This document shows, one piece after another, positions 1,744 through 49,922 of a DNA stretch of 64,000 nt; the stretch's first letter is position 1; every line of letters begins with the position of its first letter. Source of the DNA: Vulcanimicrobiota bacterium (GTDB lineage Bacteria > Vulcanimicrobiota > Vulcanimicrobiia > Vulcanimicrobiales > Vulcanimicrobiaceae); contig OY970223.1 in the NCBI GenBank assembly GCA_963714015.1, forward strand, positions 704,001-768,000, in the 5' to 3' direction. The position numbers and the translations under genes were made by a program. The notes under the pieces are model-generated. The model did no database searches. It worked only from the letters and a program-made list of their open reading frames with translations, and was not told the origin of the DNA.

Positions 1744-3639
1744 TTAGAGGTCTAAGTTCTTGACGGATTTGGCGTACTCGAAAATGTACTGCTTGCGCGG
1801 TTCGACTTTGTCACCCATCAGGTCCGTGAAGATCTGCTCCGCCTCGACGGCGTCTTCGACGGTGATGCGTTTGAGCCGGCGGTTCCCGACCTCCATCGTC
1901 GTATCGGCCAGCTGCTCGGCGTCCATCTCGCCCAGGCCCTTGTACTGCTGGACGACGTAGTCTTTACCGTCTTCCCCGATGATGGACTTGAGCTCCGGCT
2001 CGCTGAACGCGTACCACTGCTTTTTTCCCTTGCGCACGCCGTAAAGCGGCGGCTGAGCGATGTAGACGTAGCCTTCTTCGACCAGCGGTTTCATCTGCCG
2101 GTAGAAGAACGTCAGCAGGAGCGTGCGGATGTGCGAACCGTCCACGTCGGCGTCGGTCATAATGATGATCTTGTGATAGCGCAGCTTGCCGGCGTCGAAC
2201 TCGTCGCCGAAACCGGTCCCCAGCGCCGTGATCATCGTGCGAATCTCTTCGTTCGAGAGAACCTTGTCCAGGCGAGCCTTTTCGACGTTGAGAATCTTGC
2301 CGCGCAGCGGCAGGATCGCTTGAGTATTCGGATCGCGCCCGCCTTTCGCGGTGCCGCCGGCCGAGTCGCCCTCGACCAAGAAGATCTCGCTCTCCGCGGG
2401 ATTATTGTTCTTGCAGTCGACCAGTTTGCCGGGCAGACCCGAGCCTTCGAGCGCGTTTTTGCGGCGCGACAGGTCGCGCGCCTTTTTCGCGGCCTCGCGC
2501 GCGCGCTGCGCCTGCATGCACTTGTCGATGATCGTGCGTGCCGATTTCGGCGTCTCTTCGAAGAAAAAGTCCAGGCGCTCGTTGACCAGCGTGTAGACGA
2601 TGTTGCGCACGCTGGCGTTGCCGAGCTTCGTTTTCGTTTGACCTTCGAACTGCGGCTCCGCCAGCTTCACCGAAACGACCGCCGTGAGTCCTTCCATGCA
2701 ATCGTCGGTAGAGAGATTGCTGTCGGATTCCTTGAGCATGCCGCGTTTCTTCGCGTAGCTATTGACCGAATTGCTGATCGCCGTGCGAAAACCGGTGAGG
2801 TGCATGCCGCCCTCGATCGTATTGATGTTATTTGCATACGACGAGATGATCTCGGTGTAGGTGTCGGTCCATTGCATCGCAACTTCGACGTCGACGCCGT
2901 CGCGTTCGTTGTGCGTCGAGATGATGGGATGCAGCGGGTCCTTCTTCTCGTTCAGCCATTCAACGAAGGAGACGATGCCGCCGTCGAACTTGAACGTGCG
3001 CTCGCGCACTTGCTCTCCCCGCTCGTCACGCAGATCGATCGCAAGCCCGCGATTGAGGAACGCTAATTCGCGCAGCCGCTTGGCCAGCACGTCCCAGTGA
3101 AACTCCGTGACCTCGAACATCTCGCGATCGGGAAGAAACCACTGCAGCGTTCCCGTGCCCTCCGCCGCGCCAAGCTTCTTGAGTTTCTGCACCGTCAGCC
3201 CGCGCTCGAACTTCATCTCCCACAACTTGCCGTCACGTTTGACGCGCGTGGTCATCTGCTCGGAGAGCGCGTTGACGACGGAGATGCCCACACCGTGCAG
3301 GCCGCCCGAAACCTTATAGCCGCCTTTGCCGAACTTGCCGCCCGCATGGAGGATCGTCATGATCACTTCGACTGCCGGCATCTTTTCTTCGGCGTGGATG
3401 TCGATTGGAATGCCGCGGCCGTCGTCCTCGACGGAGCACGATCCGTCCTTGTACAGAACGACTTTGATGTTCTTGGCGTAGCCGGCCAACGCTTCGTCGA
3501 CCGCGTTGTCGACGGCTTCGTACACGAGCTGATGCAGCCCCCGCTCCGCAGTGTTGCCGATGTACATGCCGGGGCGTTTGCGAACCGCTTCGAGACCCTT
3601 GAGGACCTCGATTTGCTCCGCGCCGTAGTTGTTACTCAC
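1744..3639 (-). CDS. gyrB: DNA gyrase subunit B
   Basis: Motifs VRKRPGMYIG, EAVDNAVDE, SGGLHGVG, EGDSAGG, PLRGKILN, MTDADVDG and YKGLGEM; canonical position downstream of recF. Confidence 0.95.
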   Translation of the reverse strand: MSNNYGAEQIEVLKGLEAVRKRPGMYIGNTAERGLHQLVYEAVDNAVDEALAGYAKNIKVVLYKDGSCSVEDDGRGIPIDIHAEEKMPAVEVIMTILHAGGKFGKGGYKVSGGLHGVGISVVNALSEQMTTRVKRDGKLWEMKFERGLTVQKLKKLGAAEGTGTLQWFLPDREMFEVTEFHWDVLAKRLRELAFLNRGLAIDLRDERGEQVRERTFKFDGGIVSFVEWLNEKKDPLHPIISTHNERDGVDVEVAMQWTDTYTEIISSYANNINTIEGGMHLTGFRTAISNSVNSYAKKRGMLKESDSNLSTDDCMEGLTAVVSVKLAEPQFEGQTKTKLGNASVRNIVYTLVNERLDFFFEETPKSARTIIDKCMQAQRAREAAKKARDLSRRKNALEGSGLPGKLVDCKNNNPAESEIFLVEGDSAGGTAKGGRDPNTQAILPLRGKILNVEKARLDKVLSNEEIRTMITALGTGFGDEFDAGKLRYHKIIIMTDADVDGSHIRTLLLTFFYRQMKPLVEEGYVYIAQPPLYGVRKGKKQWYAFSEPELKSIIGEDGKDYVVQQYKGLGEMDAEQLADTTMEVGNRRLKRITVEDAVEAEQIFTDLMGDKVEPRKQYIFEYAKSVKNLDL

Positions 3640-4025
3640 TCTGAAAGGCGCTCCGCCCTAGGCTGCGCGCCCCCCGCGCAAAAGCGCGGGGCCCCCAAGA
3701 CAGTGGGGCGCGCATGATTCGTTTTACTCCAGAGACTCCCCGTGGGCGCCCCTATCGACGGTTTGCTTTTTGAAAGGCGCTCCGCCCTAGGCTGCGCGCC
3801 CCCCGCGCAAAAGCGCGGGGCCCCCATGACCGTGGGGCGCGCATGATTCGTTTTAGTCCAGAGACTCCCCGTGGGCGCCCCTATCGACGTTTTGCTTTTT
3901 GAAAGACGCTCCGCCCTAGGCTGCGCGCCCCCCGCGCAAAAGCGCGGGGCCCCCATGACCGTGGGGCGCGCATGATTCGTTCTTATCGAGAGCCTCCCCG
4001 TGGGCGCCCCAATCGACGTTTTCAT
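3636..4025 (-). CDS. Putative 129-aa ORF made of three 43-aa repeats, coupled to gyrB
   Basis: ATG lies 6 nt after the upstream gene's TAA and the frame is open through all three units. Its TGA overlaps the gyrB GTG (GTGA). Translation is unproven. Confidence 0.4.
   Translation of the reverse strand: MKTSIGAPTGRLSIRTNHARPTVMGAPRFCAGGAQPRAERLSKSKTSIGAPTGSLWTKTNHARPTVMGAPRFCAGGAQPRAERLSKSKPSIGAPTGSLWSKTNHARPTVLGAPRFCAGGAQPRAERLSE
3642..4025. repeat. Three tandem 129-bp palindrome-rich repeat units
   Basis: Near-identical units start at 3642, 3771 and 3900 (tgaaaggcgctccgccctagg...). Each contains the hairpin CCCCGCGC-AAAA-GCGCGGGG. Confidence 0.97.
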
Positions 4026-4031
4026 TGAATG

Positions 4032-4851
4032 TTATTTCCCGTAGAAGATGTCGTGGAGTTCGTCGCCCAGCAGATCGCGCACGACCGCCGGAACGATCCG
4101 CTCCGGATCCAATTCACTCTTGAGCAGCACGTACGAACTGGCAATCAATCGATCGCGAGACGTCAGCGCTTTTCCGCCCGTTCGACGCACTCGTTCGAGC
4201 GCATCGTGCCAGCGGCGCAGCAGACGCTGCCGTATCGCTTGATATTCGCGCTGCGTCAAATCCTCGACCAGCGGTGCTATGCCGGCGTATCCGAGCCACG
4301 GCACTTCAAAAAGCAGGCGAGCTACGGATGCATCCCGTTCTTGCGATTTTGCATTTGCGCAAGGCACGCAAAACGGCCCGGATTCCGGAACATTCCGGGC
4401 ACCGCACCGCATGCATTGTTTCCACCCCGCGACGGTTTTCGCCCGCTTGAACGCCTCCACGTCCTCCCGAAAACGTTCGAACGCGGCTTTGAGCGTTTCG
4501 ACCGGTTCGCGCTTGTCGCGACGGACGCGGCGCGCAGGTCGCGAGGGTCCGAAATTGGGAGCAGTCTGCTGCAAGCGGCCTACCCGGAAGCGGAGGCGCT
4601 CGAGCTCGACGCCGGCGTGGACGCGCAAGGCGTCCAATATCCGGTCGCTCAAGAAGGAGAGCTGCTGACTCCACGCGCCGGACCGCGTGAGCACGAGCAG
4701 TGAACCATGAGCTATTTCTTGCGGGCGGCTGTTTGCGGCGACGTCGTCGCCGACGACGCTGCTCCATGCGGCCCTTATGTACAACAGCGGATCGGCGCTC
4801 AAAGGCTGCAGTTGGTTCCCAGTCGGAGAGCGCCGCACCGAGCCGCTTCAA
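4032..4851 (-). CDS. dciA: DUF721/DciA-family protein with Zn ribbon; apparent frameshift near 4800
   Basis: Lies between recF and gyrB. AAWSSVVGDDVAANSRP...LLVLTRSGAWSQQLSFL resembles DUF721; two CxxC motifs (CMRC, CVPC); the TTG start overlaps the recF stop. Confidence 0.7.
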
Positions 4852-5948
4852 CGCGAGGTCACCATGGCGTCTCGAATTTCGTAAATCTGCGACGCACCCA
4901 AGCCTTGCGGCAGATGCGTGGCGGTGATGAAAGCCTGCTCAAAGCCCCCCACGCCGCTCAAAAACGTCCCGGCACGCTCCGTATCGAGTTCGGAGAGAAC
5001 GTCGTCCAGGAGCAACAGCGGCGCCTCCGCAGAGCGTTCCTGCATAACGCGGTATTCGGCAACCTTGACTGCCAGTACCGCCGTGCGCTGCTGGCCTTGC
5101 GAACCATACGCGGAAAGCGACCGCCCGTCCAGCAAAAGGTCGAGATCGTCGCGATGAGGCCCGGCCAAGGTGACGCCGCGGGTACGTTCCTGGGCGGCAA
5201 CTCCGGCTAATTGGCTTTCGAATGCCGCTTCGACGGCATCTCGCGTGGGGGTTTCGAAGCGGACGCTGGGCGCGTACCGGATCTCCAGATGCTCGCTGCC
5301 GCCCGTCCACTGCGCGTGCGCGTGAGAGGCCGTCTCGGCGAGGGCGTCCACGAACCCATTGCGCGCCAGCATGATCGCTGCACCGGCCTGCACGAGCGTT
5401 TCGTTATAGATCGCCAGCAGTTCCGGATCGGGCTCCGCCGGTGCGCGCAGAAGCGCCGCCTTTTGCGAGAGCACTTTCTGATAGCGCGCGAGCTCGTGGT
5501 AGTACGTCTTCTGCTCCTGCGCAAGTGCCGTGTTGAGAAGCGAGCGCCGCAGTGCCGGCGGTCCGGTTACCAGCTGCAGGTCTGCGGGGACGAACGTCAC
5601 TACGCGCAGACTGCCCAGAAAACTCGCGTACCTGACGCTGCGGCCGTTGACGGCGTACATCTTGCGCATGCCGCGCGCCGTCGACGTCACCGTGCATCCC
5701 AGCCGCACGGTGCCGGCGCGTACGAGCGTCTCTCCCGAGATCGCGGCAATTTCCAAGCCCTCCCGAATCAAATCCCGCTCGCGCGAAGTGCGAAAAGACT
5801 TCCCCGTACCGAGCATCGCAATCGCTTCCAGCAGATTGCTCTTGCCTTGGGCGTTCGCCCCGACGAACACGTTCAGTCCCGGCGCCGGCTCGAGTTCCAG
5901 ATGCGCGTAATTTCGGACATTGGAGAGACGCAGCGCGGTTAAGCGTAT
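4848..5948 (-). CDS. recF: DNA replication/repair protein RecF
   Basis: Motifs GANAQGKSNLLEAI, GPHRDDL, GSQGQQR and LLLDDVLSELD. The homologous N-terminus (RLTALRLSNVRNY) extends upstream to an ATA codon at 5948. Confidence 0.95.
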   Translation of the reverse strand: MRLTALRLSNVRNYAHLELEPAPGLNVFVGANAQGKSNLLEAIAMLGTGKSFRTSRERDLIREGLEIAAISGETLVRAGTVRLGCTVTSTARGMRKMYAVNGRSVRYASFLGSLRVVTFVPADLQLVTGPPALRRSLLNTALAQEQKTYYHELARYQKVLSQKAALLRAPAEPDPELLAIYNETLVQAGAAIMLARNGFVDALAETASHAHAQWTGGSEHLEIRYAPSVRFETPTRDAVEAAFESQLAGVAAQERTRGVTLAGPHRDDLDLLLDGRSLSAYGSQGQQRTAVLAVKVAEYRVMQERSAEAPLLLLDDVLSELDTERAGTFLSGVGGFEQAFITATHLPQGLGASQIYEIRDAMVTSR

Positions 5949-5964
5949 GGCGCGGCCGTTTCAG

Positions 5965-7080
5965 TTATTGCCGAAGCGGCATCAACACGTAGAGTTGCTG
6001 CGCGCCTTCCGGCGGTTCGACGGGACGAATCGCCGCCGGCGAAAGCGGCCCCAGGAACTCCAGAACGGTCTGCGGCGAGTCGATATGATTCAAAATTTCG
6101 ACCAGATAGCGCGCATTGAACGCGATCGTGAGATCTTCGCCTTGCTGCTCGACTTCGAGCTCTTCATAGGCGTTGCCCGAGACGTCGGAACTGGCGGTAA
6201 CGATCAGCGTTTGGTTGGCAACGGCCAACTTCACCATGCTCGCTCTATCGCCGGCGACGAGTTCGGCTCGGCGCAGGCTGCTGATTAGGGCCGCGGTATT
6301 CGCCGTTATCGAGCGGTCGAATTTGGCCGGAATCACTTGTCCGTAATTGGGATATTGGCCGTCGACCAAACGTACGACGATCGAGGTGTCCCCCGCCGCA
6401 AAAGCGAGCTGATTGCTCTGCGCGCCGAGCGCCGTAACCTCGACGGCGTCGGCACTGCCGACGTTTCGTGCGGCTTCTGCAAGCGCGCGCGACGGCACGA
6501 TGTATTTTTCGCTGCCCGAGATACCGCTCTCGAGCGCCGTTTGATACCGGGCCAGACGGTAGCCGTCGGTCGCGACCATCGTCAGAGAATCGCCCTCGAG
6601 TTCGAGCAGCGTACCCATGAGGACCGCGCCCCGTGCTTCTTCACTCGAGGCGGCAAAGATCGTTGCATTGACGCCGTCGCGGAAGCGTTTGGCCCCAAGC
6701 GTGAAGTTTTGTCCGCGCTGCGCGCTGGGCAGCGGCGGGTACTCGTCGGCCGGCAGTGCATGAAAATCGTAGTTGCTGCGCTGCACCTTGATGCTGGCCC
6801 GGGTCGGCGTGCCGGTAAGTTCGAGCGTGCCGGGCTGCAAGTTACCCAGATAACTGCTGAAGAGTTTTGCGGGCACCGTGACGCTGCCGCTCTCGGTCAC
6901 TTCGGCCGGGAAGGCGTGCTGCAGCGTGAGTTCCAGATCGGTTGCGCGCACCGCAATCCGGCCCTCTTCGGCGGTCAACAGCACGTTCGAGAGAATCGGA
7001 ACGGTCGTGTGCGCGTTGACGACTTTGCTGGCCGCTCCGACGGCGCCGGCGATGTCCTTGGTGTTACAGGTAAACTTCAC
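5965..7080 (-). CDS. dnaN: DNA polymerase III beta clamp
   Basis: Motifs PILSNVLL, ATDLEL, VATDGYRLA, GQYPNY and C-terminal YVLMPLR; directly downstream of dnaA. Confidence 0.97.
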   Translation of the reverse strand: MKFTCNTKDIAGAVGAASKVVNAHTTVPILSNVLLTAEEGRIAVRATDLELTLQHAFPAEVTESGSVTVPAKLFSSYLGNLQPGTLELTGTPTRASIKVQRSNYDFHALPADEYPPLPSAQRGQNFTLGAKRFRDGVNATIFAASSEEARGAVLMGTLLELEGDSLTMVATDGYRLARYQTALESGISGSEKYIVPSRALAEAARNVGSADAVEVTALGAQSNQLAFAAGDTSIVVRLVDGQYPNYGQVIPAKFDRSITANTAALISSLRRAELVAGDRASMVKLAVANQTLIVTASSDVSGNAYEELEVEQQGEDLTIAFNARYLVEILNHIDSPQTVLEFLGPLSPAAIRPVEPPEGAQQLYVLMPLRQ

Positions 7081-7325
7081 GGTTGTCCACTTCGTCTTTC
7101 GTGCGGCGTAACTCTAAAGTAAATAAGACCTAACCGTACCAGTAGTAAGGCGGTGTATTCTGCGAACAACCGCAGATCCGCTTGCCGTTACGCGGTTTTT
7201 CGGCCCGAACAAGTTGTGCAGTACCCTTGGACGGCCTTGCACATCTCCACTCCGGCGCGCTCCCAGGCAGTTATCCACGCGCGCGCAGGCGCCCTGTGAA
7301 GCGAAGCGTGCATATTATGGATAAC
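7081..7325. promoter_or_regulatory. oriC segment between dnaA and dnaN: DnaA boxes and AT-rich unwinding region
   Basis: DnaA-box-like 9-mers TTGTCCACT (7083), TTATCCACG (7271) and TATGGATAA (7316). An AT-rich tract spans ~7108-7150; the minus strand reads GCC-TTACTACTGGTA, resembling DnaA-trios. Confidence 0.7.
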
Positions 7326-7335
7326 GCGCAGCGGC

Positions 7336-7367
7336 AAAAACGAAACGGCCCGGGGAGCCCGGACCGT
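7336..7367 (-). terminator. Possible intrinsic terminator after dnaA
   Basis: GC-rich stem ACGG(T)CCGG-loop-CCGG(G)CCGT followed by TTCGTTTTT on the minus strand. Confidence 0.45.
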
Positions 7368-7396
7368 CCATCGAGATCTGCCGCCGCGCGGCCCGA

Positions 7397-8768
7397 TCAA
7401 TCGTTTTGGCAGAGTGCCACCAATTGGCGAATGCGGTTGCGGTAGGCCTCGTCGCGCTGCATCTGCTCTTTAACCTTATCCCGCGCGTACATGACCGTCG
7501 TATGGTCCTTCTTGTTGAATTCGCGCGCGATGTGCGGCAGCGAGCAGTCCGTGAGTTCCGTACAGACGTACATCGCAATCTGCCGCGGAGCGGCAACGCG
7601 CTGGTCGCGGCGATGGTTGTCCATCTCTTTGACGGTTAGACCATGCGCTTTGGCGACTTTTTCTTTGATGGCGGTGATCGTCACGCGGCGCAGCGGAGCT
7701 TGCGCGACCGCGTTCTTGAGAACTTCGGCGGCCAAATCGACCGTAATCGAGGACTTCGTGAGCGAGGAGAACGCCACAACGCGAATGAGCGCGCCTTCGA
7801 GTTCGCGGATGTTCGAGGGAATGACTTTCGCGATGAACGACGTCACCTCGTCGGGCACGGGAATTTTTTCGCTTTCCGCCTTCTTGCGCAGAATCGCTTC
7901 ACGCGTCTCGAGATCCGGCGGCTGAATGTCGGTGAGGAGTCCCCATTCGAATCGGGAGCGCAGCCGGTTCTCGAGCGTTTGAATCTCTTTGGGCGGACGA
8001 TCGCTTGAAATTACGAGTTGCCTCCCGGATTCGTGCAGCGCGTTGAACGTATGGAAGAACTCCTCTTGCGTACCTTCTTTGCCTTCCAGAAACTGAATGT
8101 CGTCGATCAGCAGCACGTCCACTAGACGGTACTTGTTGCGAAACTCGACCGTCTTGTTGTTTTGCACCGCAATGATGAATTCGTTCGTGAATTTTTCGCT
8201 GGAGACGTACACGACGTTCGCGTCGGGATTATCCTGGAGAACGCGATGGCCGATTGCATGCATCAAATGCGTTTTGCCCAGCCCCACGCCGCCGTAGAGG
8301 AACAGCGGATTGTATGCCCGCGCGGGGGCCGCTGCTACGGCTTGCGCCGCCGCATGTGCGAACCGGTTTGAGTTGCCGATGACGAACTCTTCGAACGTAT
8401 AGCGCGAATTGAGGTTTCCGGGCCGGAATTCCGCGGGCCGCAGGGTTCCGTTCGCCGCAGTTCCGGGGCCGGCTCCGGGAGGAGCCCCCTCGCTCGCATC
8501 CGGCACAACCGTAATCTGCAACTGCATGCCCGGTCCGAATACCTCCGAGAGGACCTCAGCTGATCTGGCCCTTCAGGCGATTTTCAACCCAGTCCCGAGC
8601 GAAATTGTTCTGAACCGCGACGAGCAGCTCGTTGCCGGTTAGCGAGACCAGGCGGAGCGGCTTGATCCACATCTCGAAAATCGGCTTGGAAAATTTCCGT
8701 TCCAGCGCCGTCAGAGCGGATTGCCAGAGTTCATTCGAGATGTCCGGGTTGCCAACCACAAGTGCCAT
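7397..8768 (-). CDS. dnaA: Chromosomal replication initiator DnaA; apparent frameshift near 8560
   Basis: Domain I (LWQSAL...FEMWIKPL...NNFARDWV) is in ORF 8556..8768. The AAA+ region ([35 protein letters not shown]) and domain IV (KDHTTVMYA) are in ORF 7397..8527. Confidence 0.97.
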
Positions 8769-8899
8769 CTGTCATTCCGTTCCTTGTTAGTGCGTAGAAG
8801 CTTCGAACCAATCCCCGACATAAGTCGGCGGACCCGAGCGGAGCGTTGGAGGCCCAAAGGTTGGCGTAATCAGGCGCCTATCCTGCGGAGTTGAAATCA

Positions 8900-9140: not shown

Positions 9141-9146
9141 AGCCGC

Positions 9147-9177: not shown

Positions 9178-9237
9178 AGGTGGCTGTGCCCTGCCGCCGA
9201 GCCCGGCGGCGATTTTTTCCTAGGAGAAGCGATCACC

Positions 9238-9916: not shown

Positions 9917-9925
9917 CGCTTCCAC

Positions 9926-40087: not shown

Positions 40088-40786
40088 GTGGCCGGCGAGA
40101 ACCGTCGGCGCCGTTTGCGCGCCCTGCTCGATCGCGCCGGAGTTTCCGGCGGCGCGTTGGAGCGTATCGATGCTGCGTTCATACACGAAAGCGCCGCCAA
40201 AGAAGAGCTGCTCGACTCGAACGAGCGGCTGGAGTTCTTGGGCGACGCCGTCCTGGGGCTGGTCGTAGCCGGCTGGCTCTATAAGATGTATGCGGACGAT
40301 CGCGAGGGCGCGCTCGCAAAACGGAAAGCGGCAATGGTCGCCGATGCAGCGATTGCAAAGACCGCCAAGTCGCTTGGCTTTGCCGAGATGCTGCGGGTCG
40401 GAGCGGGCGAACGCGCGCACGGCGGCGCGCAGCGGAGTTCGATTCTGGCCGATGCATTCGAAGCTTTCGTTGCGACGCTCTATCTGGAGCACGGATTCGA
40501 GGTTGCCCAGCGGTTTATCGTCGACGAGCACATCGCCACGTTCGATCACGAACTCGCCGCAATGGCCGATGCCAAGACGCGATTGCAGGAGCTCACCCAG
40601 GCGCACCTCGCCTGCACGCCGGTCTATTCCGAGAAGGCCGAGGGACCCGCGCACGAACGCGTGTTCACTTCGCAGGTCAGCGTCAATGAGGAGACCCTCG
40701 GAACGGGCACCGGCCCGTCGAAGAAGGCGGCTCAACAGAACGCCGCTGCCCAAGCGCTTAGGATCTTACAGGCACGACTTCAATGA
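40088..40786 (+). CDS. rnc: Ribonuclease III
   Basis: Motifs NERLEFLGDAVL and ADAFEA; dsRBD (KTRLQE...GPSKKAAQQNAA). Confidence 0.96.
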   Translation: MAGENRRRRLRALLDRAGVSGGALERIDAAFIHESAAKEELLDSNERLEFLGDAVLGLVVAGWLYKMYADDREGALAKRKAAMVADAAIAKTAKSLGFAEMLRVGAGERAHGGAQRSSILADAFEAFVATLYLEHGFEVAQRFIVDEHIATFDHELAAMADAKTRLQELTQAHLACTPVYSEKAEGPAHERVFTSQVSVNEETLGTGTGPSKKAAQQNAAAQALRILQARLQ

Positions 40787-40848
40787 ACTTTATGGAATCT
40801 CACCGGCGCTACGATGACCGGCCCGAAGCGGAGTCCCTTTCAAAGTGA
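40783..40848 (+). repeat. Short member of the intergenic element family; 21-aa mini-ORF bridging rnc and smc
   Basis: ATG overlaps the rnc stop; MNFMESHRRYDDRPEAESLSK; TGA overlaps the smc GTG. The 3' end GCGGAGTCCCTTTCAAAGTG resembles the gyrB element end GCGGAGCGCCTTTCAGAGTG. Confidence 0.55.
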
Positions 40849-43800
40849 ACCTCAAACAGATCAAGACGTTCGGATTCAAGACGTTTGCCGAACCCACGAC
40901 ACTGACGTTCGGAAACGGCATTACGGCTATCGTCGGCCCGAACGGGTCGGGCAAATCCAATCTCATCGACGCGTTCCGGTGGGTGCTCGGCGAGCAGAGC
41001 AGCAAGAGCTTGCGGTCGGGAAAGATGGAAGACGTCATCTTTGCGGGCAACGAGAAGCGCAAGCCGCTCGGTCTGGCCGAGGTCTCCATCCTTTTCGACA
41101 ACGGCGATCGCCGGCTGCCGATCGATTTTACGGAAGTCGAGATCACTCGCCGCGCGTATCGCGCCGGCGAGATCGAGTACTACATCAATCGCAATCAATG
41201 CCGCTTGCGCGATATCATGGATCTGCTGATGGGCACCGGCCTGGGCCCCGGCTCCTATTCGATCGTTTCGCAAGGGCAGATCGACGCCATTCTGACGAGC
41301 AAACCGGCGGATCGCCGGGCGCTGTTCGAAGAGACGGCCGGGATCAACAAATTTCTTGCGCGTAAGAACGAGTCGATGCGCCGCCTGGAGCAGACGGAGC
41401 AGAACGCGATCCGCATCAACGATCTCATTTCCGAACTGGAGCGCCGCGTTCCGGAACTCGACACGCAAGTCCGCCGGGCAAAGCGCTACCGGAAAGTCAG
41501 CGCGCGAGTGCGCGATTTGGAGATTCTCTCGTACCTGCGGGCGAGCGCCTCACGTCGCGCCGAACGGGAGACGCTGCGCGAACAGCTCGAACGCAACGAA
41601 GAGCTGCGATCTGCGGCCGCGGCCAAAGCGGCCTCCCTCGGCGCGCAGCTCGCGCAGAGCCGCACGACCGTCTATAAACACGAACTTGCGCTCGAAGAGC
41701 AACGCACGCAAAGCCAAAACCTGCGTTCCGATTTAGCGCGTTTGGAAGCGGACTACGCTGCAGCGCTCGCGCGGCGGGAAACGTTGGAGGCGCAGAGCAC
41801 GCAGACGTCGGAAGACGCCGCGCGCGTTCAGCACGAGCGCGAGACGCTTCAGACCGCGATCGCCGATCTCCAGAATCGGATTTCGCCGCTGCAAGCCGAA
41901 CTCGAAACGGCGCGCGATGCCGAATTGCAGACGCAAACCGCTCTCTCGCAAACGCGTGCCCAGCTCGATGAAATCTTCACGAAGCTCCGGGAGGTCGAAG
42001 CCGCCGCATCCGACCGCGCCGCGCGCAAGGCGGAGCGGCGCGTACAGAGTGAGAACGCCCGGGCGGAATCGGAGCGCCTGGAGCGCGAAGCCGCGGCTGC
42101 CCGCGCTTCGGCCGAGCAGTTGGAGATATCTGCCGGCTCCGCGATGCATCGCTACGGCGAGCAGCAGCAACAGCTGGCGCACCTGGAGTCGCAGCTGCTC
42201 GACGCGCGCGGGCGCGTCGAGGATGCCGAACGCGCCGTCACGCAAGCGCAGGGCGACGTCCTTCGCGCCACGACGGCACACCGCGAGTATTCGAGCGAAG
42301 TAGCCGCGGCCCAGTCGCGCCTGCACACGATCGAAGAGCTGGAGAACGCGCTCGAAGGCCACGTGCCCGGGACGCGCGCCGTCGTCGAAGCTTGGCAGCG
42401 CGGCGAACTTCGCGGCATCGAAGGCATTATTTCGAACTTGATTACCACCGACGAGCCGTACGCGCGCGCGATGGACATCGCTTTCGGCGCCCGTCTCTCG
42501 AACATCGTGACGCGTACTTCCGAAGACGCCGAGCGCGGAATCGACTACCTCAACGCAAAAGAACTGGGGCGCGCGACGTTCTTGCCGCTGGATACGCTGC
42601 AGAACCGTACCGGTAAAGAGCTGAACGGCGAGCTGCGCGGCGTGCGCGGCGTTATCGGTTATGCGCATACCCTCGTGCGCACGGATCCCCAGTATGAAAG
42701 CATCGTGCGGTTCCTCGTCGGCAACGTGCTGGTGGTCGACACGCTCCAGACCGGGATTTTTTTGGTGCGCAACCGCGGGCTGCGCGAAACCATCGTCACC
42801 CTTTCCGGCGAGCAGATTGCGGGCGGCGGAGCGATCACCGGAGGCCGCTATCAGCGCGAGAAGTCCATTCTTTCGCGGCGCGTGCAGGCGCAGACGCTGC
42901 GCGAGCAGCTGGTCGAGATGCAGTCGCGATTGGGCGAACTGGAGTCCGCGGTGCAACAAGCGGCGCGTTACGGCGAAGCTTCGATCGGCGTGCGCGAGCA
43001 AGCACAAGCGGCATTGCGGCGAGCGGAGATTGGCGCCACCGAGGTTCGCGGCGAGATGGCGAGCGTTTCCGCCGAGATCGAGCGCGTCGACCGCGAGCTC
43101 GGCGCTGCACGCCTGCGCGCGGAGGAATTGCGCGCGCAAGCTGCTGCCGCGCGGGAGCGGGAACGCAGTTTCGAAGGCGCTCCCACCGAAGATGCGCGCA
43201 GCGATGAAGAACGCCGGCGGCTCGAGTCGGAACTCGGGCTGGCTCGGGAACGGATTGCGCAAGCCGAATCCGCGCAGGCCGGTACGAGCGCGCGCGCCGG
43301 AGATCTTCGGGAGCGTTTTGCCGCCCTCACTGCGGAGCGGGACGGTGCCAAGGCGCGCCTGGGCATCATCGACCAAGACAGCCGGCGGGCGCGAATTGCA
43401 CGTGAAGCGATGGAAAGCGAGATCGCGCAGCTTACGGCGCAGACCTCGGAATCGGCGCGCAAAGTGGAAGCGCTACGCGCGGACGTCTTTGCCGCAGATG
43501 GGCGGTTCGATGCCGCGCGCCGCGAGCGCGAGGTCCTGAGCGATCGCGTTACGCGTCTCGAGGCGGATGTGCGTACCGCGGAGATCGAGGAGCGCGAGGC
43601 GCAGGCGGGCGGCGAGCGCCATCGCACGCGGCTCGCCGAGATCGAAGCCGAGCTCGGCATGCTGGTCTCACAGTTCGCGCAGAATCCCGCGGCCGACGAC
43701 GAATGCCGCGACGTCGAAGATCGCTACCGCGACGAACCGGACGCCGTAGCCGAGGATCTCCCACGGCTGCGCGAAGAGCTCGCTCGTCTCTCCGCCAACG

Positions 43801-44417
43801 TGAATTTGAACGCCGAAGCGGATCGAGAAGACCTCGCGCAGCGCGAACAGTTCCTGCGCGCGCAGCTCGACGACCTTTCAAAAGCGCGCGAGACGCTGCT
43901 TGCCTCGATTCGCGAGATCGAACAGCAGACGCAAGCGCGCTTCAACCAGACGTTCGATCAAGTCGCCGAGGCCTTCACGCAGATGTACGCCAAGCTCTTT
44001 CCCGGCGGACAAGCAAAAATGTGGCAGACCAATCCCGAGAGTCTCTCGGAGACCGGAATCGAGATCTCCGTTCAGCCTCCGGGTAAGAAGCTGATGCCGC
44101 TCCCGAGCTTGTCCGGCGGCGAACGAGCGATGACCGCAGCCGCGCTGATCTTCGCGCTCATCAAAGTGCGTCCGTCGCCGTTCTATTTGCTCGACGAAGT
44201 CGATGCCGCGCTCGACGACGCGAACGTCGAACGCTTCTCGAGTATGGTGCGAGAGCTCGCCACCGACTCGCAGATGATCATCGTAACGCACAATAAGCAG
44301 ACGATGGAGCTCGCCGATCGCATGTACGGCGTGACGATGGGCGAAGCAGGGATCAGCTCGCTGATCTCGGCCGAGCTTGGCGCTCGCGAACGGGAACCGG
44401 AGCCCGCGATTGCCTGA
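40845..44417 (+). CDS. smc: Chromosome segregation protein SMC
   Basis: GFKTF, GPNGSGKSN, long coiled coils, hinge GRATFLPL, LSGGE and LLDEVDAALD. Confidence 0.97.
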   Translation: MNLKQIKTFGFKTFAEPTTLTFGNGITAIVGPNGSGKSNLIDAFRWVLGEQSSKSLRSGKMEDVIFAGNEKRKPLGLAEVSILFDNGDRRLPIDFTEVEITRRAYRAGEIEYYINRNQCRLRDIMDLLMGTGLGPGSYSIVSQGQIDAILTSKPADRRALFEETAGINKFLARKNESMRRLEQTEQNAIRINDLISELERRVPELDTQVRRAKRYRKVSARVRDLEILSYLRASASRRAERETLREQLERNEELRSAAAAKAASLGAQLAQSRTTVYKHELALEEQRTQSQNLRSDLARLEADYAAALARRETLEAQSTQTSEDAARVQHERETLQTAIADLQNRISPLQAELETARDAELQTQTALSQTRAQLDEIFTKLREVEAAASDRAARKAERRVQSENARAESERLEREAAAARASAEQLEISAGSAMHRYGEQQQQLAHLESQLLDARGRVEDAERAVTQAQGDVLRATTAHREYSSEVAAAQSRLHTIEELENALEGHVPGTRAVVEAWQRGELRGIEGIISNLITTDEPYARAMDIAFGARLSNIVTRTSEDAERGIDYLNAKELGRATFLPLDTLQNRTGKELNGELRGVRGVIGYAHTLVRTDPQYESIVRFLVGNVLVVDTLQTGIFLVRNRGLRETIVTLSGEQIAGGGAITGGRYQREKSILSRRVQAQTLREQLVEMQSRLGELESAVQQAARYGEASIGVREQAQAALRRAEIGATEVRGEMASVSAEIERVDRELGAARLRAEELRAQAAAARERERSFEGAPTEDARSDEERRRLESELGLARERIAQAESAQAGTSARAGDLRERFAALTAERDGAKARLGIIDQDSRRARIAREAMESEIAQLTAQTSESARKVEALRADVFAADGRFDAARREREVLSDRVTRLEADVRTAEIEEREAQAGGERHRTRLAEIEAELGMLVSQFAQNPAADDECRDVEDRYRDEPDAVAEDLPRLREELARLSANVNLNAEADREDLAQREQFLRAQLDDLSKARETLLASIREIEQQTQARFNQTFDQVAEAFTQMYAKLFPGGQAKMWQTNPESLSETGIEISVQPPGKKLMPLPSLSGGERAMTAAALIFALIKVRPSPFYLLDEVDAALDDANVERFSSMVRELATDSQMIIVTHNKQTMELADRMYGVTMGEAGISSLISAELGAREREPEPAIA

Positions 44418-45973
44418 AGCGGCGCTGCTCTCGCTTTCGGATAAGACGGGCGCAGCCGAAGTCGGCAAGGCACTCGCGGACCGCGGCGTCGGCATCTTCG
44501 CGACCGGCGGCACCCGATCGTTTTTGGCCCAGCACGGCATCGCCGCGCGGGACGTCGAGGAGTTGACCGGCTTTCCGCCGCTGTTCGACGGCCGTGTCAA
44601 GACGCTGCATCCGAAGGTCTTCGGCGCGATTTTATACGATCGCGCAAAATCCGCACACCGCGAACAAGCGCGCGTGTACAACATCCACGACATTCGCTAT
44701 TTGATCGTGAACCTGTATCCGTTCGAAGCTACGGCGGCGCGCGAGGGAACCACCATTGCCGAAGCGATCGAGCAGATCGACATCGGCGGCGTTTCGCTGC
44801 TGCGTGCCGCGGCGAAAAATTTCGCCCACCTTACGGTGCTCAGTCATTCCTCGCAGTACGCGGCGTTTTTGAAAGCATTGCCGCAGGGCGGCCCGGACGA
44901 AGCCTGCCCGTCGCCGCCTGGCAGTCGCGGCGTTCGAACGCACCGCCGAATACGACGCCGCCATCGCGCATTATCTCGCCACGAAAGGCACCGTGCTGCC
45001 GAGCGAACTTCCGGGCGCGCTAACGCTGACGCTGCCGCTCGGCCAGCCGTTGCGATACGGCGAGAATCCGCAGATGCGCGCAGCGTTTTACTTGGACGGC
45101 TCGCGCCGTCTTCCGGAGCAACTGCACGGCAAAGAGCTTTCGTACAATAATCTGCTCGATCTGGACGCTACGCTGCGCCTGCTTTCCCGCGCTCCGCTGG
45201 GTGCGCAAATTGGATCGGAGCCGGAACGGTTCGTGCGCGCGGCAATCGTCAAACACACCGTTCCGTGCGGCGTTGCGCAGCGTTCCAGCGCTACGAAGGC
45301 CCTGCGCGACGCGCTCGACGCCGATCCGGTTTCCGCATATGGCGGAATCATTGCGGTCGACGCGCCGGTCGATGCGCAGAGCGCGCAGGCCCTCTCCTCG
45401 TTTTTTTTGGAGATCGTCGCGGCGCCGCAGTTCGATGCCGAAGCACTTGAAATTCTGAAAAAAAAGAAGAACCTGCGGATCATGCGTTACGCGCCTTCGC
45501 TGCCTGACGAACTGCAGCGCGAATTGCAGCTGCGCAGCGCGCTTGGCGGCGTGCTCGCGGAGGAAGAGAACGCCGGCCACAAACCGGAGACTTGGCGCGT
45601 GGTCAGCAAACGTCAGCCGCAGGCGCAGGAATGGCACGATCTCGCATTTGCCTGGGACGTCGTCCGGCACGTCAAGAGCAACGGCGTCGTCATAGCCAAG
45701 GCCGGAGCGACGAGGGGGATCTGCGCGGGTCAGACCAACCGCGTGAGCGCCGTGAAAATTGCCGGCGTGCGGGCGGGCGAGAACGCCAAAGGGGCGGCCT
45801 GCGCGAGCGACGGCTACTTTCCGTTTCCGGACGGGCTCGAGGAGGCGGCCCGCGCCGGGTGCACCGCCGTAATTGCGCCGGAGGGCTCGGTTCGCGACGC
45901 GCTGGTCGTCGAGGCGGCCGATCGCCTTGGAGTGGCGCTCGTCTTCTCGACCCGCCGGTACTTTTTGCACTGA
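44410..45973 (+). CDS. purH: Bifunctional AICAR transformylase/IMP cyclohydrolase; apparent frameshift near 44900
   Basis: Motifs ALLSLSDKTG, GRVKTLHP, IDIGG, RAAAKN, LRYGENP, LSYNN, VKSN and ASDGYFPF. Confidence 0.94.
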
Positions 45974-45996
45974 CGCCGGCGCTGTATAGTAGGCGC

Positions 45997-46398
45997 ATGA
46001 CGCGCTACCTCCACACGTCGATCTTCGTGAACGACATGCAGCAGTCGATAGACTTCTATACCCGGAAGCTCGGCCTCAAATTGCTCGACGGGCCGCATCA
46101 CTATCCGGGCAATGCGGACATGGCCTTCGTCGGAAACGACTGGAACGCGTACATCGAACTGGTGTACGACCTCGAGGATCATCCGCCGTACGAGCTGGGC
46201 AACCGCTACGAGCATTTGGCGATCGAGGCGAGCGGTGAGCTGGAGCAGTTGATCTCCGATCTGCGCGAGCAGGGCGTGAAGATTCTGAAAGACGTAAAAC
46301 GTTCGCCGGGCGGTACGCGCGCAATCGCCTTCGTCGAAGATCCCAACGGAATTCCGGTGGAGATTCTCGAACCTCGGACGGCGCAAGTACTTTCCTGA
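45997..46398 (+). CDS. VOC/glyoxalase family protein (lactoylglutathione lyase-like)
   Basis: YLHTSIFVNDMQQSIDFY, IELVY, HLAI and FVEDPNGIPVE; TATAGT 6 nt before the ATG suggests a leaderless transcript. Confidence 0.88.
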   Translation: MTRYLHTSIFVNDMQQSIDFYTRKLGLKLLDGPHHYPGNADMAFVGNDWNAYIELVYDLEDHPPYELGNRYEHLAIEASGELEQLISDLREQGVKILKDVKRSPGGTRAIAFVEDPNGIPVEILEPRTAQVLS

Positions 46399-46414
46399 AG
46401 ACGTAGTTCGAGCG

Positions 46415-46939
46415 ATGAAGAGTTTGCTGCAGGCAGCGGTTTTAAGCATTGTAATGACGCAAAGTTTCGGCGACCGGGTTGCGCAGATCACGCAGCGCAT
46501 CACGAGCGCCCAGGCGGCGCACACGGTCTCTTCCGCGCAGCAGGCGCTCTTTCAAGCCGAACTTGCGGCGGCGAACACCGCAAACCAACACAACGACGCG
46601 CGGGCAAATGCCATGCTCGACGACGTCGAGCGGCAGCTCACGCCGATCGATCACGTCCTTACGCGCGCCAATGACGGCGGCGCGCTGGTGGTTCATCAAG
46701 GCGACCAAGTCGTCGTCGCGTTCCACGATCCGTACACGTACGATATTCATTTGTCCAAAACGGGCATCATCGCAATCAAGCCCGGCATCATGTGGATACG
46801 CGGCGTGCAAGGCATTTACGTCGCCAAGACGGCCGGAGTCGTCCGGATGACGATGAATCCTCGTCCGGGCGTTACACCCTCGCCGCCGCCCTCGCTGCAA
46901 AACACGCTGGTCTTTACGATCGTGGTTTTGCCGTCCTAA
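46415..46939 (+). CDS. Hypothetical exported protein
   Basis: Signal-like N-terminus, helical segment, then a beta-rich C-terminal domain; fills the intergenic gap. Confidence 0.55.
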   Translation: MKSLLQAAVLSIVMTQSFGDRVAQITQRITSAQAAHTVSSAQQALFQAELAAANTANQHNDARANAMLDDVERQLTPIDHVLTRANDGGALVVHQGDQVVVAFHDPYTYDIHLSKTGIIAIKPGIMWIRGVQGIYVAKTAGVVRMTMNPRPGVTPSPPPSLQNTLVFTIVVLPS

Positions 46940-48012
46940 CGATAGACGAACGGATCCGTGGGAGGCGCGATTGGCTGCAAAAGTTCCGCTTTCAGTTCAA
47001 GGCCATCCCGGGAATCCACTAGTGTTCCGCGCGCGTGGACCCAGCCGGCCAGCCAATGCGGCGCATCGGCAATGCGCACGGCGATTGGTGCGGCGTCGGC
47101 ACGGCAGCACGTAATCGCATAACGCACGAGCGACGTTTCGTTCGCAGATCGCGTGACTGAACCGGTAAAGTCCAGCCGCTCACCTGGGAAAGCCCCGGCC
47201 AGCGTCGTTTCGCTCGCGTAATACTGCGGCGGCGGAACGGAAAGTACCGAGCCGGCCAGCATGATCGCCGGCGCGATGCGCGCCGGCCAGCAGCTTTCCC
47301 GGCGGTGAACGTGCGCAAGCCAAAGCGATACGCCCGCGCACGGCCAAAGCGCAGCGGCGATACGCGGATGGACCAGGCCGGCGCCGCCGCGGCCGGCCGC
47401 CAAAGCGCAAGCTGCGGTTAGCAGCAGATAGCCGAGCACGTCGTGCGAAACATGGACGCGGCGCGTGCCGAACCACGTTCGAACATCCACTATTCCGGCC
47501 GCGCACAAGAACCCGGCGGCCGACACGGGAAGCGTAACGCGCAGCGACGCCGCAAAAGCCGCCGCGCTGATGCCGCAAGGCGACATCAAGATCGCGCAGA
47601 GAGCACCGGCGCCGAATGCAATCGGGGGTGAAGGACGCAAACCCAAAACGACCGGCGCAAAAAGTGAAACGCACGCCCCGATCGCCGCAGCCGGAGCGAT
47701 CCCCAGCAACTGCGAGAGCGCGCCGTCGCCGCGAGCGTCGTTGCAGGCGTGCGGAAGTAAGCGCGCGATCAATGTGCCTGCTGCAAGCCGCGCCGCGGCG
47801 ACGAACGGCCCGAAGATCGCGCAGACCGCGGCGGCAGCGGGCAAAGAACGCGCGGAAGGTCCCGTCCCGCACCCGCATCCGAGATACGGAACCATCCACC
47901 CGCTGCGCCGCAGCGGCGTTCCGGCGAGAACCGCAGCGGCAAGAACGAACGGGGCGCTTTCGAGCAATGTCGCTGCACACGTCACGAGCAACGCCGTCGC
48001 CATGCTGCTCAT
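46936..48012 (-). CDS. Membrane protein: permease-like N-terminus fused to a DUF1980/TIGR03943-like C-terminus
   Basis: LLESAPFVL, GCGCG and SPCG in a multi-TM region; C-terminal LVRYAITCCRADA...WVHARG...PTDPFVY. Confidence 0.65.
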   Translation of the reverse strand: MSSMATALLVTCAATLLESAPFVLAAAVLAGTPLRRSGWMVPYLGCGCGTGPSARSLPAAAAVCAIFGPFVAAARLAAGTLIARLLPHACNDARGDGALSQLLGIAPAAAIGACVSLFAPVVLGLRPSPPIAFGAGALCAILMSPCGISAAAFAASLRVTLPVSAAGFLCAAGIVDVRTWFGTRRVHVSHDVLGYLLLTAACALAAGRGGAGLVHPRIAAALWPCAGVSLWLAHVHRRESCWPARIAPAIMLAGSVLSVPPPQYYASETTLAGAFPGERLDFTGSVTRSANETSLVRYAITCCRADAAPIAVRIADAPHWLAGWVHARGTLVDSRDGLELKAELLQPIAPPTDPFVYR

Positions 48013-48057
48013 TCACGCAAAGGGTCGCGGTCGTCTAGTGGGAAGTTGCCCTAACCC

Positions 48058-49327
48058 ATGGCCCAGAACATCACCGCACCGCGGGGAACGCAGGATTTCA
48101 TCCCGCCGCAGACCTCGCGATGGCAAGAGCTCGAATCGCGGATTCACATGCTCGCCCGGCGCTACGGATACGGCGAGCTGCGCACGCCGATCTTCGAGGC
48201 GACGGAGCTCTTCGTGCGCGGCGTGGGCGAGGCCACGGACATCGTCGACAAAGAGATGTACACGTTCGTCGACAAGGGCGATCGCAGCATGACGCTGCGG
48301 CCCGAATTCACCGCGCCTATCGTTCGCGCGGCGATCGAACACAATCTCTTCGCGCAAGGCCCGCAGCGGCTGTATTACCTGGGACCGATTTTCCGCTACG
48401 AGCGTCCGCAGAAAGGACGCTACCGCCAAGCGCATCAGTTCGGCATCGAATGTTCCGGGTTCGCGGGTCCCGAGGCCGACGTTGAAGTGATGGCGCTCGC
48501 GATGCATCTCTTCAGGACGTATGGTCTGAACGTGGTACTGCGTTTGAACTCGATCGGCGACGAGCAATGCCGCCCGCGCTACCGCGAGGCACTGCTGGCG
48601 CATTTCAGGCCGCATCTCGAACAGCTCAGCGCGGAGTCGCAGCGCCGTTTGGAGCGCAACCCGCTGCGTCTGCTGGACAGCAAGTCCCCCGAGGATCAGC
48701 CGTTTCTGGACTCCGCTCCGAAATTCCAGGAGTATCTTTGCGATGCGTGCCGCGTCCACTTTGACGGCGTAAAACGGTATCTGGAGCACATTGCCGTTCC
48801 GTACGCCGTCGACGCGCGTATCGTTCGCGGACTGGATTACTACACGCGCACGGTCTTCGAATTTACTTCGGATGCGCTCGGCGCGCAAAGCACGGTCTGC
48901 GCGGGCGGCAGGTACGACAAACTGATCGAGTCACTGGGCGGCCCCGACGTTCCGTCGGTCGGCTTCGCGCTTGGGATGGAGCGTTTGCTGCTTACGATCG
49001 ATGCAGTGGATCCGCTCGCGGAATCGGTGCGCGGCGGCGTGCAAGTCGTTGCGCTCGGCGAACAGGCGCGCGAAGTCCTGGTGACGCTCACCGCGCTGCT
49101 GCGCTACTCCCTTACCGTGCCGGTGTTCATGGACTACGACGATCGCAAACTGCTGGCGCCAGTTGAAGACCGCAGACCGCAACAACGCGCGCTACGCGCT
49201 GATCGTCGGCAGCGACGAAGTAGCGGCCGGCGAAGCGATTCTGCGCGATCTGAGCGAGCGCTCGGACCGCCGCGTCCCGCTCGGAAAAGACTTGGTGCCG
49301 TCTTTAGTGGAACTACTGCAAACATGA
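48058..49327 (+). CDS. hisS: Histidine--tRNA ligase; apparent frameshift near 49157
   Basis: Motifs PRGTQD, LRPEFTA, FRYERPQKGRYR, VRGLDYY and GGRYD. The shifted frame gives the anticodon-domain end QLKTADRNNARYALIVG...LLQT-TGA. Confidence 0.95.
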
Positions 49328-49462
49328 ACGTGCGTGGTACCCGTCCCCAGGGAGCCTTCGAATTGCGGCCCGTTTCACGGGCCCCGCGGTCATGGGGGAC
49401 CCGCGCTCAGATGGGTGCGCGGCTCGGAACGGAGCGCCTTTCAAAACGGAGCGCCTTGCAGA
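49324..49462 (+). repeat. Diverged single copy of the 129-bp element between hisS and accB
   Basis: Shares GCCCC(G/A)CGGTCATGGGGG(A/C)CCCGCGCT and CGGAGCGCCTTTCAAAA with the reverse complement of the 3642-4025 units. Confidence 0.75.
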
Positions 49463-49922
49463 ATGGCGGCTGACTCGCCGGAGACCGAAACGCTCAAGAG
49501 CCTGCTCGAGATCATGCACGAGCACGACCTCGACGCGCTCAAAGTCAAGGTCGGCGACAAGATTTTCGAACTGGTGCGTCGCGAAGGCGCCGTCGCCATC
49601 GTGCCGGGCCATGCCCCCGCTGCAGCGGGCGCAGCGCTAACGTCTTCAACGTCCCCCGGGGCGTCGGCGGCGGCTCCGCCCAACGTCAAGAAAGTCACTG
49701 CTCCGCTGGTAGGCGTGTTCTACGCCGCCCCGTCTCCGGACGCCGAGCCGTTCGTAAAGGCCGGCGATCGCGTGGAAGCCGGCCAGGTGCTCTGCATTCT
49801 GGAAGCGATGAAGCTGTTCAACGAGATCACGAGCGACTACGCGGGCGTCGTTGCGCGAATCATTCCGGAGAACGGAGAGCTGCGTCTCGCTCGGTCAGGA
49901 GATGTTTTGGATAGAACCGTAG
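49463..49922 (+). CDS. accB: Acetyl-CoA carboxylase biotin carboxyl carrier protein; apparent frameshift near 49880
   Basis: Motifs APLVGVFY and EAMKLFNEI (biotinyl-lysine); the shifted frame ends [15 protein letters not shown]. Confidence 0.92.

Follow-up and report, generated by a model that had tools for sequence, protein, structure and literature searches.

The interspersed repetitive units of mycobacteria (MIRUs), for which the original description is reportedly that of Supply et al. in 1997, have been used for typing for decades, and it is still unclear how they move and what effect they have on expression. Rickettsia palindromic elements (RPEs) are repeats that are able to sit in frame inside coding sequences. 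According to the parts of PMC12548453 that concern MIRUs, these units insert at start codons and an open reading frame (ORF) within the MIRU is then coupled to the gene at −4 spacing, which minimises the impact on expression. The MIRU section of the 2011 review PMC3184786 describes sites both with and without the unit, internal inverted repeats rich in G+C, and ORFs that overlap the flanking genes, and its passages on Neisseria REP2 and the Borrelia plasmid upstream repeats list a promoter, a ribosome-binding site (RBS), an ATG and internal stem-loops. Here we analyse a repeat family with a similar start-codon habit in the genome of a Vulcanimicrobiota bacterium. The starting point was a stretch of 64,000 nt (GenBank assembly GCA_963714015.1, contig OY970223.1, positions 704,001 to 768,000), called the window below. 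A preliminary description of the window had pointed to three inserts of similar architecture at the junctions of dciA and gyrB, of rnc and smc, and of hisS and a BCCP-domain gene, and had proposed that they form a dispersed element family which may preserve translational coupling to essential genes. We consider it probable that they belong to a MIRU-like, lineage-specific intercistronic repeat whose 3' end would form the translation-initiation region of the downstream gene.

The repeat family is real, and its dispersal over gene junctions was borne out by profile searches of the 3.56-Mb genome. An iterated nhmmer search, seeded with one unit and run to convergence, detected 38 copies at 22 loci, with similarity spanning 106 nt and E-values down to 1e-24, and a covariance model built from 18 representatives gave 47 matches with scores exceeding 100 bits. 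The units are GC-rich and 106-132 nt long, comprising a core of ~106 nt and a leader of 10-25 nt, and tandem arrays of 2-5 units occur at 9 of the 22 loci. The genome-wide motif search suggested in the preliminary description returned only 7 exact occurrences of the 16-mer at the 3' end. Taken by itself this count would imply that the family is nearly absent, a conclusion that the profile searches overturned. If up to two mismatches are allowed, the 16-mer has 13 more matches outside these copies, and at least five of these lie directly before an ATG or GTG, the rnc/smc site among them.

Some arrays have a composition of their own. The array upstream of mreB (L004 7476-8019; G000:C1:798976-799519) consists of five units, the four inner ones lacking the 3' helix domain and following each other with a period of 108-110 nt, and mreB has its own AGGAGA 13 nt past the array. 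Upstream of fliG (L008; G000:C1:1950429-1950576) 4-5 tandem 30-nt sub-repeats of the 5' end of the element only are found ahead of a full copy.

The position of the copies is highly regular. After an invariant AGCGCC comes a U/A-rich 7-mer with the consensus TTTYAAA, and the start codon of a gene follows. The AGCGCC lies 6-8 nt before a qualifying start in 17 of the 22 arrays of this genome and, in a sample of 58 arrays from eleven relatives, in 42, compared to 8,466 of 100,000 random positions (8.5%) in a control with a wider 5-nt window and the same lax ORF criterion. Among 82 arrays that we classed, 59 were sense-adjacent with the 3' end 2-8 nt before the start, although a few of these are false and one, the lpxA copy of the relative G009, is actually antisense. 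A further 11 lie in sense orientation at 9-25 nt, several of them with a separate Shine-Dalgarno (SD) sequence before the start, 6 have no sense start, 4 fall into other arrangements and 2 are truncated. The predicted sense orientation directly before start codons thus holds for the bulk of the arrays.

An NCBIfam match was obtained for 18 of the 22 downstream proteins, with start codons agreeing with the true N-termini of known proteins. The downstream genes include gyrB, smc, atpA, mreB, lpxA, sufU, fliG, nuoN, prfA and purP, the genes of a PASTA kinase, a class-V aminotransferase and the BCCP-domain protein, and those of the ribosomal proteins S19, L14, L5, L6 and L36. Their functions range over replication, the ribosome, ATP synthase, the envelope, flagella, Fe-S assembly and purine synthesis and share no common pathway or ligand. 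On the other side, 16 of 21 upstream ORFs are co-directional with a Pfam match (among them DciA, HisRS, AtpH, FabZ, SufS, L2, S17, S8, Map, a PBP, L31 and NuoM), and most form familiar pairs such as FabZ/lpxA, AtpH/atpA, NuoM/nuoN, L2/S19, S17/L14 and S8/L6. The ribosomal-protein cluster of ~10 kb (L010; G000:C1:2277061-2287010) holds 5 of the 22 loci, compared to ~0.2 expected per gene start by simple arithmetic. The same cluster has several copies in the relatives G017, G001 and G007. A strict confinement to operon junctions, as the preliminary description had it, fails: one copy lies between tRNA genes, and the prfA array follows a terminator-like hairpin downstream of rpmE. The tRNA copy (L012 2006-2374; G000:C1:2740005-2740373) sits inside a cluster of four tRNA genes in the same orientation, and just upstream of it there is a partial inverted copy of the 3' end.

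In the window itself the dciA/gyrB junction carries three tandem 129-nt units on the minus strand (3642..4022; tandem repeat period 129, 3.0 copies, 96% matches by TRF). The units were also detected by nhmmer and by the covariance model, with one covariance-model match per unit (3636-3751, 3765-3880 and 3894-4009). The 3' terminal module of the gene-proximal unit (3640..3655, minus strand) places an SD-like GGAG 11 nt before the start codon (3637-3639) of gyrB (1744..3639, minus strand; NCBIfam TIGR01059, E 2.9e-284), and the upstream neighbour is a DciA-domain gene (4032..4838, minus strand; Pfam PF05258, E 3.2e-14). Neither a sigma-70-like promoter nor an intrinsic terminator was found in the gyrB array. 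At the hisS junction there is a single diverged full-length copy on the plus strand (49339..49449; nhmmer E 4.8e-11, covariance model 58.5 bits). Its 3' terminal module is doubled head to tail, with two 16-mers 17 nt apart (49430..49462, plus strand) before the ATG at 49463. The rnc-smc spacer of 58 nt (40787..40844, plus strand) was matched by neither the family HMM nor the covariance model. It holds a piece that resembles the 5' leader, as judged by eye, and the 3' terminal module at 40829-40844, where the 16-mer is retained with 2 mismatches to the family consensus. From its sequence we take this spacer to be an internally deleted remnant which has lost its middle; the same deleted architecture occurs upstream of pknB in G009. 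All three sites have in common a 3' module of CG-N-AGCGCC, the U/A-rich 7-mer and the start codon, and GGAG, 11 nt and a start codon were found in this order at each of them, as had been reported. The TGAA...TTCA ends that the preliminary description listed as an inverted repeat are present at the window sites, but this is a trivial 4-mer and not a family-wide feature since the 5' flanks vary.

The ORF list lets hisS run through the element to 49473. We rejected this as an artefact, since an extra C near 49159-49160 shifts the frame, as the C-termini of the relatives' HisRS and the translation of the other frame indicate. At 49150-49165 the relatives encode Leu-Leu-Ala-Gln-Leu-Lys, and the one extra C here amounts to an apparent +1 frameshift. 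It would be either an assembly indel or the mark of a pseudogene; scattered indel errors fit the completeness score of 89.6% of this single-contig genome. The ORF after hisS (49463-50500, 345 aa) joins a BCCP domain (residues 10-139) to a SIS/phosphoheptose-isomerase-like domain (180-342), which could be a true fusion or another indel artefact.

The copies fold into a common structure. For 18 copies RNAalifold predicted 20 base pairs, 9 of them with compensatory changes, in three domains: a long-range stem that closes a variable region, a hairpin of CCCC...GGGG whose apex varies, and a GGCGC...GCGCC stem that encloses a 3-bp mini-hairpin. We then find that in 76 distinct sequences from other genomes 96.7% of the cells are paired, with 165 double changes compared to 40 in shuffles, and that the covariation score is 0.321, compared to 0.091 for shuffles, of which 0 in 500 come up to it, and to no more than 0.065 with the partners slid, on an alignment that was fitted to the model and with a third helix that shows no variation because the fetch pattern had fixed it. 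G-U and U-G pairs outnumber A-C and C-A pairs by 39 to 9, and for this reason we take the sense (mRNA) strand to be the folding strand. In the minimum-free-energy fold the U/A-rich spacer and the start codon were unpaired in 3 of 4 copies. Single-sequence folding gave z-scores of −0.3 to −1.75, which are uninformative at such a G+C content. A search of the window against Rfam 15 returned 0 matches at the gathering score and only noise at E ≤ 1.

Copies at the same junction were also compared between genomes. They are 70-92% identical, compared to 54-67% for the third codon positions of the flanking genes, across 8 usable junction pairs; the fliG row was left out of this test as its codons had clearly been read in the wrong phase. 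In the comparison with G001 the identity of the elements is 81% and 92%, and that of the third positions 60-64% in rplB, rpsS and map and 84% in rpmJ (n = 38). At six further junctions shared with G007, G009 and G015 the elements are 70-84% identical, compared to 54-67% for the third positions. Measured against these codon positions, the sequence of the element is evidently under purifying selection. When copies were ranked by how similar their variable regions are, the one at the same junction did not always stand out in the rows of the comparison that were completed. The same-junction copy ranked 1-7 for rpmJ (G001), atpA (G007 and G009), rplF and one fliG copy, and 10-66 for the other fliG copy, rpmJ (G017), atpA (G015), the aminotransferase gene, nuoN and the BCCP gene.

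The repeat is restricted to one taxonomic family. The covariance model matched 36 of 61 sampled genomes of the host's family (Eremiobacterota/Vulcanimicrobiota) and had no match in the 79 genomes that represented 20 other families of the phylum, and the copy number per genome ranges from 0 to 44. Out of 80 loci that were kept from a pattern search, 74 have a covariance-model match, and the six without one, labelled as other phyla or as an unnamed bacterium, are chance matches of the pattern. The matching contigs are labelled Eremiobacterota/Vulcanimicrobiota, with the names Baltobacteraceae, Vulcanimicrobiaceae, Elarobacter and Lustribacter; five model-matching loci come from metagenome-assembled genomes labelled as other phyla (Limnocylindria, Binatia, Acidimicrobiaceae), and we took these labels as given. 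Several of the genomes are unpublished. G010, G021, G023, G046 and G047 are included in the tallies of copy number and of the gyrB, smc and hisS junctions, and G021 and G023 contribute one array each to the pooled counts (position, array classes, shared junctions, mini-ORF frames, and the constraint and GGAG tests).

Individual junctions differ even between close relatives, and the empty orthologous sites that the preliminary description had suggested looking for were found at gyrB, hisS, smc, pknB and lpxA. The gyrB junction is occupied in 2 of 32 genomes, by three units here and by one unit in the unpublished G023. Both other species of the genus are empty, and the empty gyrB spacers of the nearest genera range from overlapping genes to ~10 nt, those of more distant genera reaching up to ~90 nt. 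At hisS, 3 of 20 genomes are occupied (this one, G009 and G013), and 5 of the 6 empty sites that were read show a TGATG or ATGA overlap, G007 having a longer spacer. For the smc junction there was no model match in any of 30 genomes, and the relatives' rnc coding sequence reaches the smc start without such a spacer, as judged by eye and with the stops not mapped. The pknB junction of six genomes shows a series of states. Three units are found here and partial ones in G013, G009 has a copy with an internal deletion, G007 retains a 3' remnant of 15 nt, and the two congeners are empty. At lpxA there is one sense copy here, an antisense copy in G009 and an empty site in four others. On one side of the antisense element between fabZ and lpxA of G009 (L297 1972-2076) the start of lpxA is nearly duplicated, with 9 of 12 bases matching. 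On the other side there is an 8-nt inverted repeat of this flank. The number of units also differs between relatives at rpmJ, rplF and pknB. Overall, 46 junctions that are occupied in relatives have a homologue here, some of which may be paralogues, and 12 of them are occupied here too; the sharing declines with distance (G001 3 of 4, G007 2 of 4, G009 5 of 18, G015 1 of 11). We infer that mobility is the cause of this pattern of presence and absence.

On these observations we would propose the following course of events. Copies would be gained and lost over evolutionary time just 5' of start codons, predominantly in sense orientation and for the most part in housekeeping operons. An element transcribed within the mRNA would form three self-contained helices followed by the fixed 3' module, which may act as an initiation region with its SD-like GGAG at long spacing and an unstructured A/U leader, and the hairpins could insulate this region from upstream sequence. 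The 3' end of the 16S rRNA has the canonical anti-SD CCUCC. If the 3' module does act in this way, an insertion would be non-polar and could become fixed and constrained. Where a frame is open by chance, ribosomes arriving from the upstream gene or from a short ORF would terminate at or next to the start (NTGA), which may add termination-reinitiation coupling as an optional extra and not as the core mechanism. The evidence points more to a ready-made initiation region in the 3' module than to an obligatory coupling by mini-ORFs.

Several observations weigh against this interpretation. The preliminary description had singled out GGAG at a fixed 11 nt. The elements do carry this motif and it would be able to serve the downstream gene, but it is not invariant: at its variable position 12 of the 18 representatives have G, 4 have A and 2 have C, which makes it GAAG or GCAG in 6 of the 18. 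A spacing of 11 nt is also longer than the 4-8 nt usual in this genome, as estimated from rough gene calls, and copies without GGAG tend to lie further from the start with a separate SD, a trend only (Fisher p = 0.09). About 12 of the 82 arrays are not beside a sense start, e.g. the antisense copy at lpxA of G009 and the copy among the tRNA genes. As for mobility, the suspected transposase or RAYT with the same ends was not found: PF01797 (Y1 transposase/RAYT) had 0 matches in this genome and a match in 1 of 24 family genomes, that one without element copies, and the same search detected controls in 6 of 14 named genomes. The best-10-mer test for target-site duplications was null (7.10 compared to 7.05 ± 0.10) and the test anchored on the start codon was marginal (z = 2.2). 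Copies at different loci within a genome have a median identity of 64-77% and never exceed 88-90%, so there is no sign of recent transposition or of a recent burst. Finally, the strong constraint on structure and sequence together with the G-U asymmetry fits an RNA function for the host at least as well as a selfish element.

This last point leads to the alternative that survives best, one we regard as unlikely on balance but serious enough to keep in sight. The element could be a cis-acting RNA module of the host and not a selfish repeat, i.e. a three-helix leader before growth-related genes that serves the binding of a lineage-specific protein or RNA, or processing or insulation, so that their translation is set or jointly regulated, and that was spread by duplication or recombination. 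Besides the covariation, the tolerance of G-U on the sense strand only and a conservation above that of third codon positions, the unpaired sequence also contains conserved blocks. The 5 of 22 loci in the ribosomal-protein cluster and the copies at atpA, prfA, gyrB and mreB would suit such a role, as would the atpA junction, which is occupied in four genera, and the failure to find a transposase. Against such a module stands the low conservation of occupancy at single junctions: 34 of the 46 junctions occupied in relatives are empty here, the gyrB junction is empty in 30 of 32 genomes, and there is no match in 25 of the 61 family genomes, nor in 7 of 24 in a more sensitive scan of relatives. 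Furthermore the downstream genes have no single common function, no Rfam family was matched, and tandem amplification, remnants with internal deletions and a copy in antisense typify repeats and not regulators. A further reading is conceivable, although we think it doubtful: the element could be a natural, portable, standardised translation-initiation cassette, made of a self-folding RNA insulator and a fixed SD and spacer, which the lineage has placed before dozens of housekeeping genes, which is read by a lineage-specific factor or else by the ribosome, and which defines a growth-tied translational regulon spread by repeat mobility.

Taken in its strict form, the mechanism of the preliminary description would have the translation of a mini-ORF from the upstream stop to the downstream start keep the essential gene expressed, and the openness of the frame would be selected for this reason. 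All three window sites fit this idea. Stop-free ORFs of 129 aa (3636..4025, minus strand, spanning the whole gyrB array, from the ORF list and the sequence), 21 aa (40783-40848, plus strand) and 49 aa (49324..49473, plus strand) are indeed present. Their starts lie where they had been placed: ATG 4025 sits 6 nt past the dciA stop (4034-4032), ATG 40783 overlaps the rnc stop (40784-40786), and ATG 49324 overlaps the TGA (49325-49327) that closes the true C-terminal frame of HisRS. Their stops overlap the start codon as GTGA at gyrB and smc and lie 8 nt past the start, inside the next gene, at the BCCP gene. Across this genome a continuous translated path to the downstream start exists at 13 of 21 loci, namely 11 scanned loci, where a start codon near the upstream stop and an ORF ending within 8 nt of the downstream start were required, the BCCP mini-ORF and a read-through from nuoM. 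In this genome and in G009, i.e. in two genera, the nuoM ORF continues across the element as far as the ATGA of nuoN and gains ~40 extra residues (L015 1710-1822, L019). The precedent of MIRUs, as far as PMC12548453 describes it, speaks for the same mechanism.

However, 7 of the 21 loci have no such path (one was left unresolved) and only 2 of the 9 multi-copy arrays are open throughout. Of 53 full-length start-adjacent copies, 37 close the gene's own frame inside the element, and the +1 and +2 frames stay open in 34 and 31, respectively. The last two figures amount to 64% and 58%, compared to ~50% expected by arithmetic for 36 codons at 70% G+C, and the period of the arrays is a multiple of three in 8 of 16 cases. 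The compensatory changes in the stems alter the encoded peptide, and a Pfam search with the mini-ORF peptides gave no match. On the supporting side, an NTGA at the start was observed in 34 of the 53 copies, which are not independent of each other, compared to ~32% A at +4 genome-wide in rough gene calls, and this is the sole mini-ORF feature above background. The mini-ORF as the element's own coupling device can therefore be retained only in part: the ORFs exist and many loci have a path, but they are neither defining nor demonstrably selected. Since the frames stay open no more often than the G+C content would lead one to expect, coupling through them is a possibility only, and we consider the strict version rather improbable.

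A mobilisation by a Y1 enzyme (RAYT/TnpA) is far less probable still. The family would then be a REP/REPIN or IS200/IS605-type hairpin element that inserts beside a fixed tetranucleotide such as ATGA, and strand-specific folding, an ATGA that seems frequent in the 5' flank and the NTGA at the 3' end speak in its favour. The 5' ATGA is not universal, though, and PF01797 had no match here or in 23 of the 24 family genomes, with the control genomes detected. In addition, the units are three-helix structures of 106-132 nt in direct tandem and not palindromes of 20-40 nt in inverted pairs. As regards the marks of a MITE, the 5' GGCGCC...CGG is complementary to the 3' CCGGAGCGCC in an imperfect way, with the covarying 5' partner pairing internally instead. 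In this genome a longer motif of the 5' end turned up 9 times apart from the known copies, as four 30-nt sub-repeats at fliG and as scattered single sites, and no inverted pair encloses a gene. Apparent duplications of the start region at the 5' boundary are seen in single cases (G009 hisS with 7 of 8 bases, G009 lpxA with 9 of 12, and atpA) and are not significant overall. A chance likeness of ordinary ribosome-binding regions, for which only the shortness of the 16-mer common to the rnc/smc site could be cited, is refuted by the 6 matches to the first reported 16-mer in the window at ≤1 mismatch compared to 0.01 expected (0 of 100 shuffles reached 6), by the 106-nt similarity with its E-values and by the model scores above 100 bits.

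Returning to the reading of a MIRU-like intercistronic repeat, we can ask how close the likeness to described systems is. Our literature search on intergenic repeats of Eremiobacterota and on miniature repeats at start codons returned no description of this family. The statement that it is not a described family is thus right for the sequence family, but the principle has already been published for mycobacterial MIRUs, as far as PMC12548453 sets it out: the sequence family is new, and the principle of insertion at the start codon with a coupled ORF is known from MIRUs. For the annotation of such genomes the repeats have a practical consequence, as they give rise to spurious ORFs, such as the one of 129 aa at gyrB, extend proteins at the C-terminus (NuoM) and can mislead the calling of start codons.

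REP/BIME and REPIN sequences resemble the element as G+C-rich extragenic hairpins at many loci that are transcribed within operons and keep their structure through compensatory changes. They differ in that the units here are larger three-helix structures in direct tandem arrays, located at start codons rather than at the 3' ends of genes, and come without a RAYT. The likeness to RPEs is confined to NuoM, where the element forms the C-terminal tail of the protein in two genera; in-frame coding is exceptional here, most copies being intergenic. With Neisseria REP2 and the Borrelia repeats, in so far as PMC3184786 characterises them, the element shares its place immediately upstream of genes, an RBS and start-codon context and internal stem-loops. 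Those repeats carry a promoter and an ATG, whereas here the ATG is the gene's own, the copies inside arrays and the copy in the tRNA cluster are without ATG, and no sigma-70-like promoter was found in the gyrB array. Synthetic bicistronic designs offer a further parallel, in which a short leader ORF holds the SD of the next gene, its stop overlaps the start, and initiation becomes independent of the upstream context. These designs, which PMC12548453 mentions, are engineered, whereas here a leader ORF is present in a subset of copies only and its function is putative.

The closest likeness is to MIRUs. Judged by what PMC12548453 and PMC3184786 say of these, both families consist of short units of variable number in tandem, dispersed over tens of loci, and lie intercistronically within operons in sense orientation at start codons. 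At part of the loci here, as in MIRUs, the end of an internal ORF overlaps the downstream start; in both families related species have empty sites, the inverted repeats are G+C-rich, and no transposase is known. The differences are the host, which belongs to Eremiobacterota/Vulcanimicrobiota and not to Actinomycetota, the unit length of 106-132 nt compared to about 40-100 nt, the three-helix covarying structure under purifying selection, and an ORF that is dispensable in a third of the loci. A structure with covariation and measurable purifying selection is a feature absent from the MIRU descriptions consulted, in the parts that bear on structure, and being defined and under selection it allows specific mutational tests to be designed. 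The family would seem to work like a MIRU, but we do not count it among them, given that its host is of another phylum, that the likeness is one of behaviour, and that the ORF trait is indistinguishable from the expectation at this G+C content. An independent family with the same start-codon habit, in a distant phylum apparently known almost entirely from metagenome-assembled genomes, suggests that the strategy is convergent and general.

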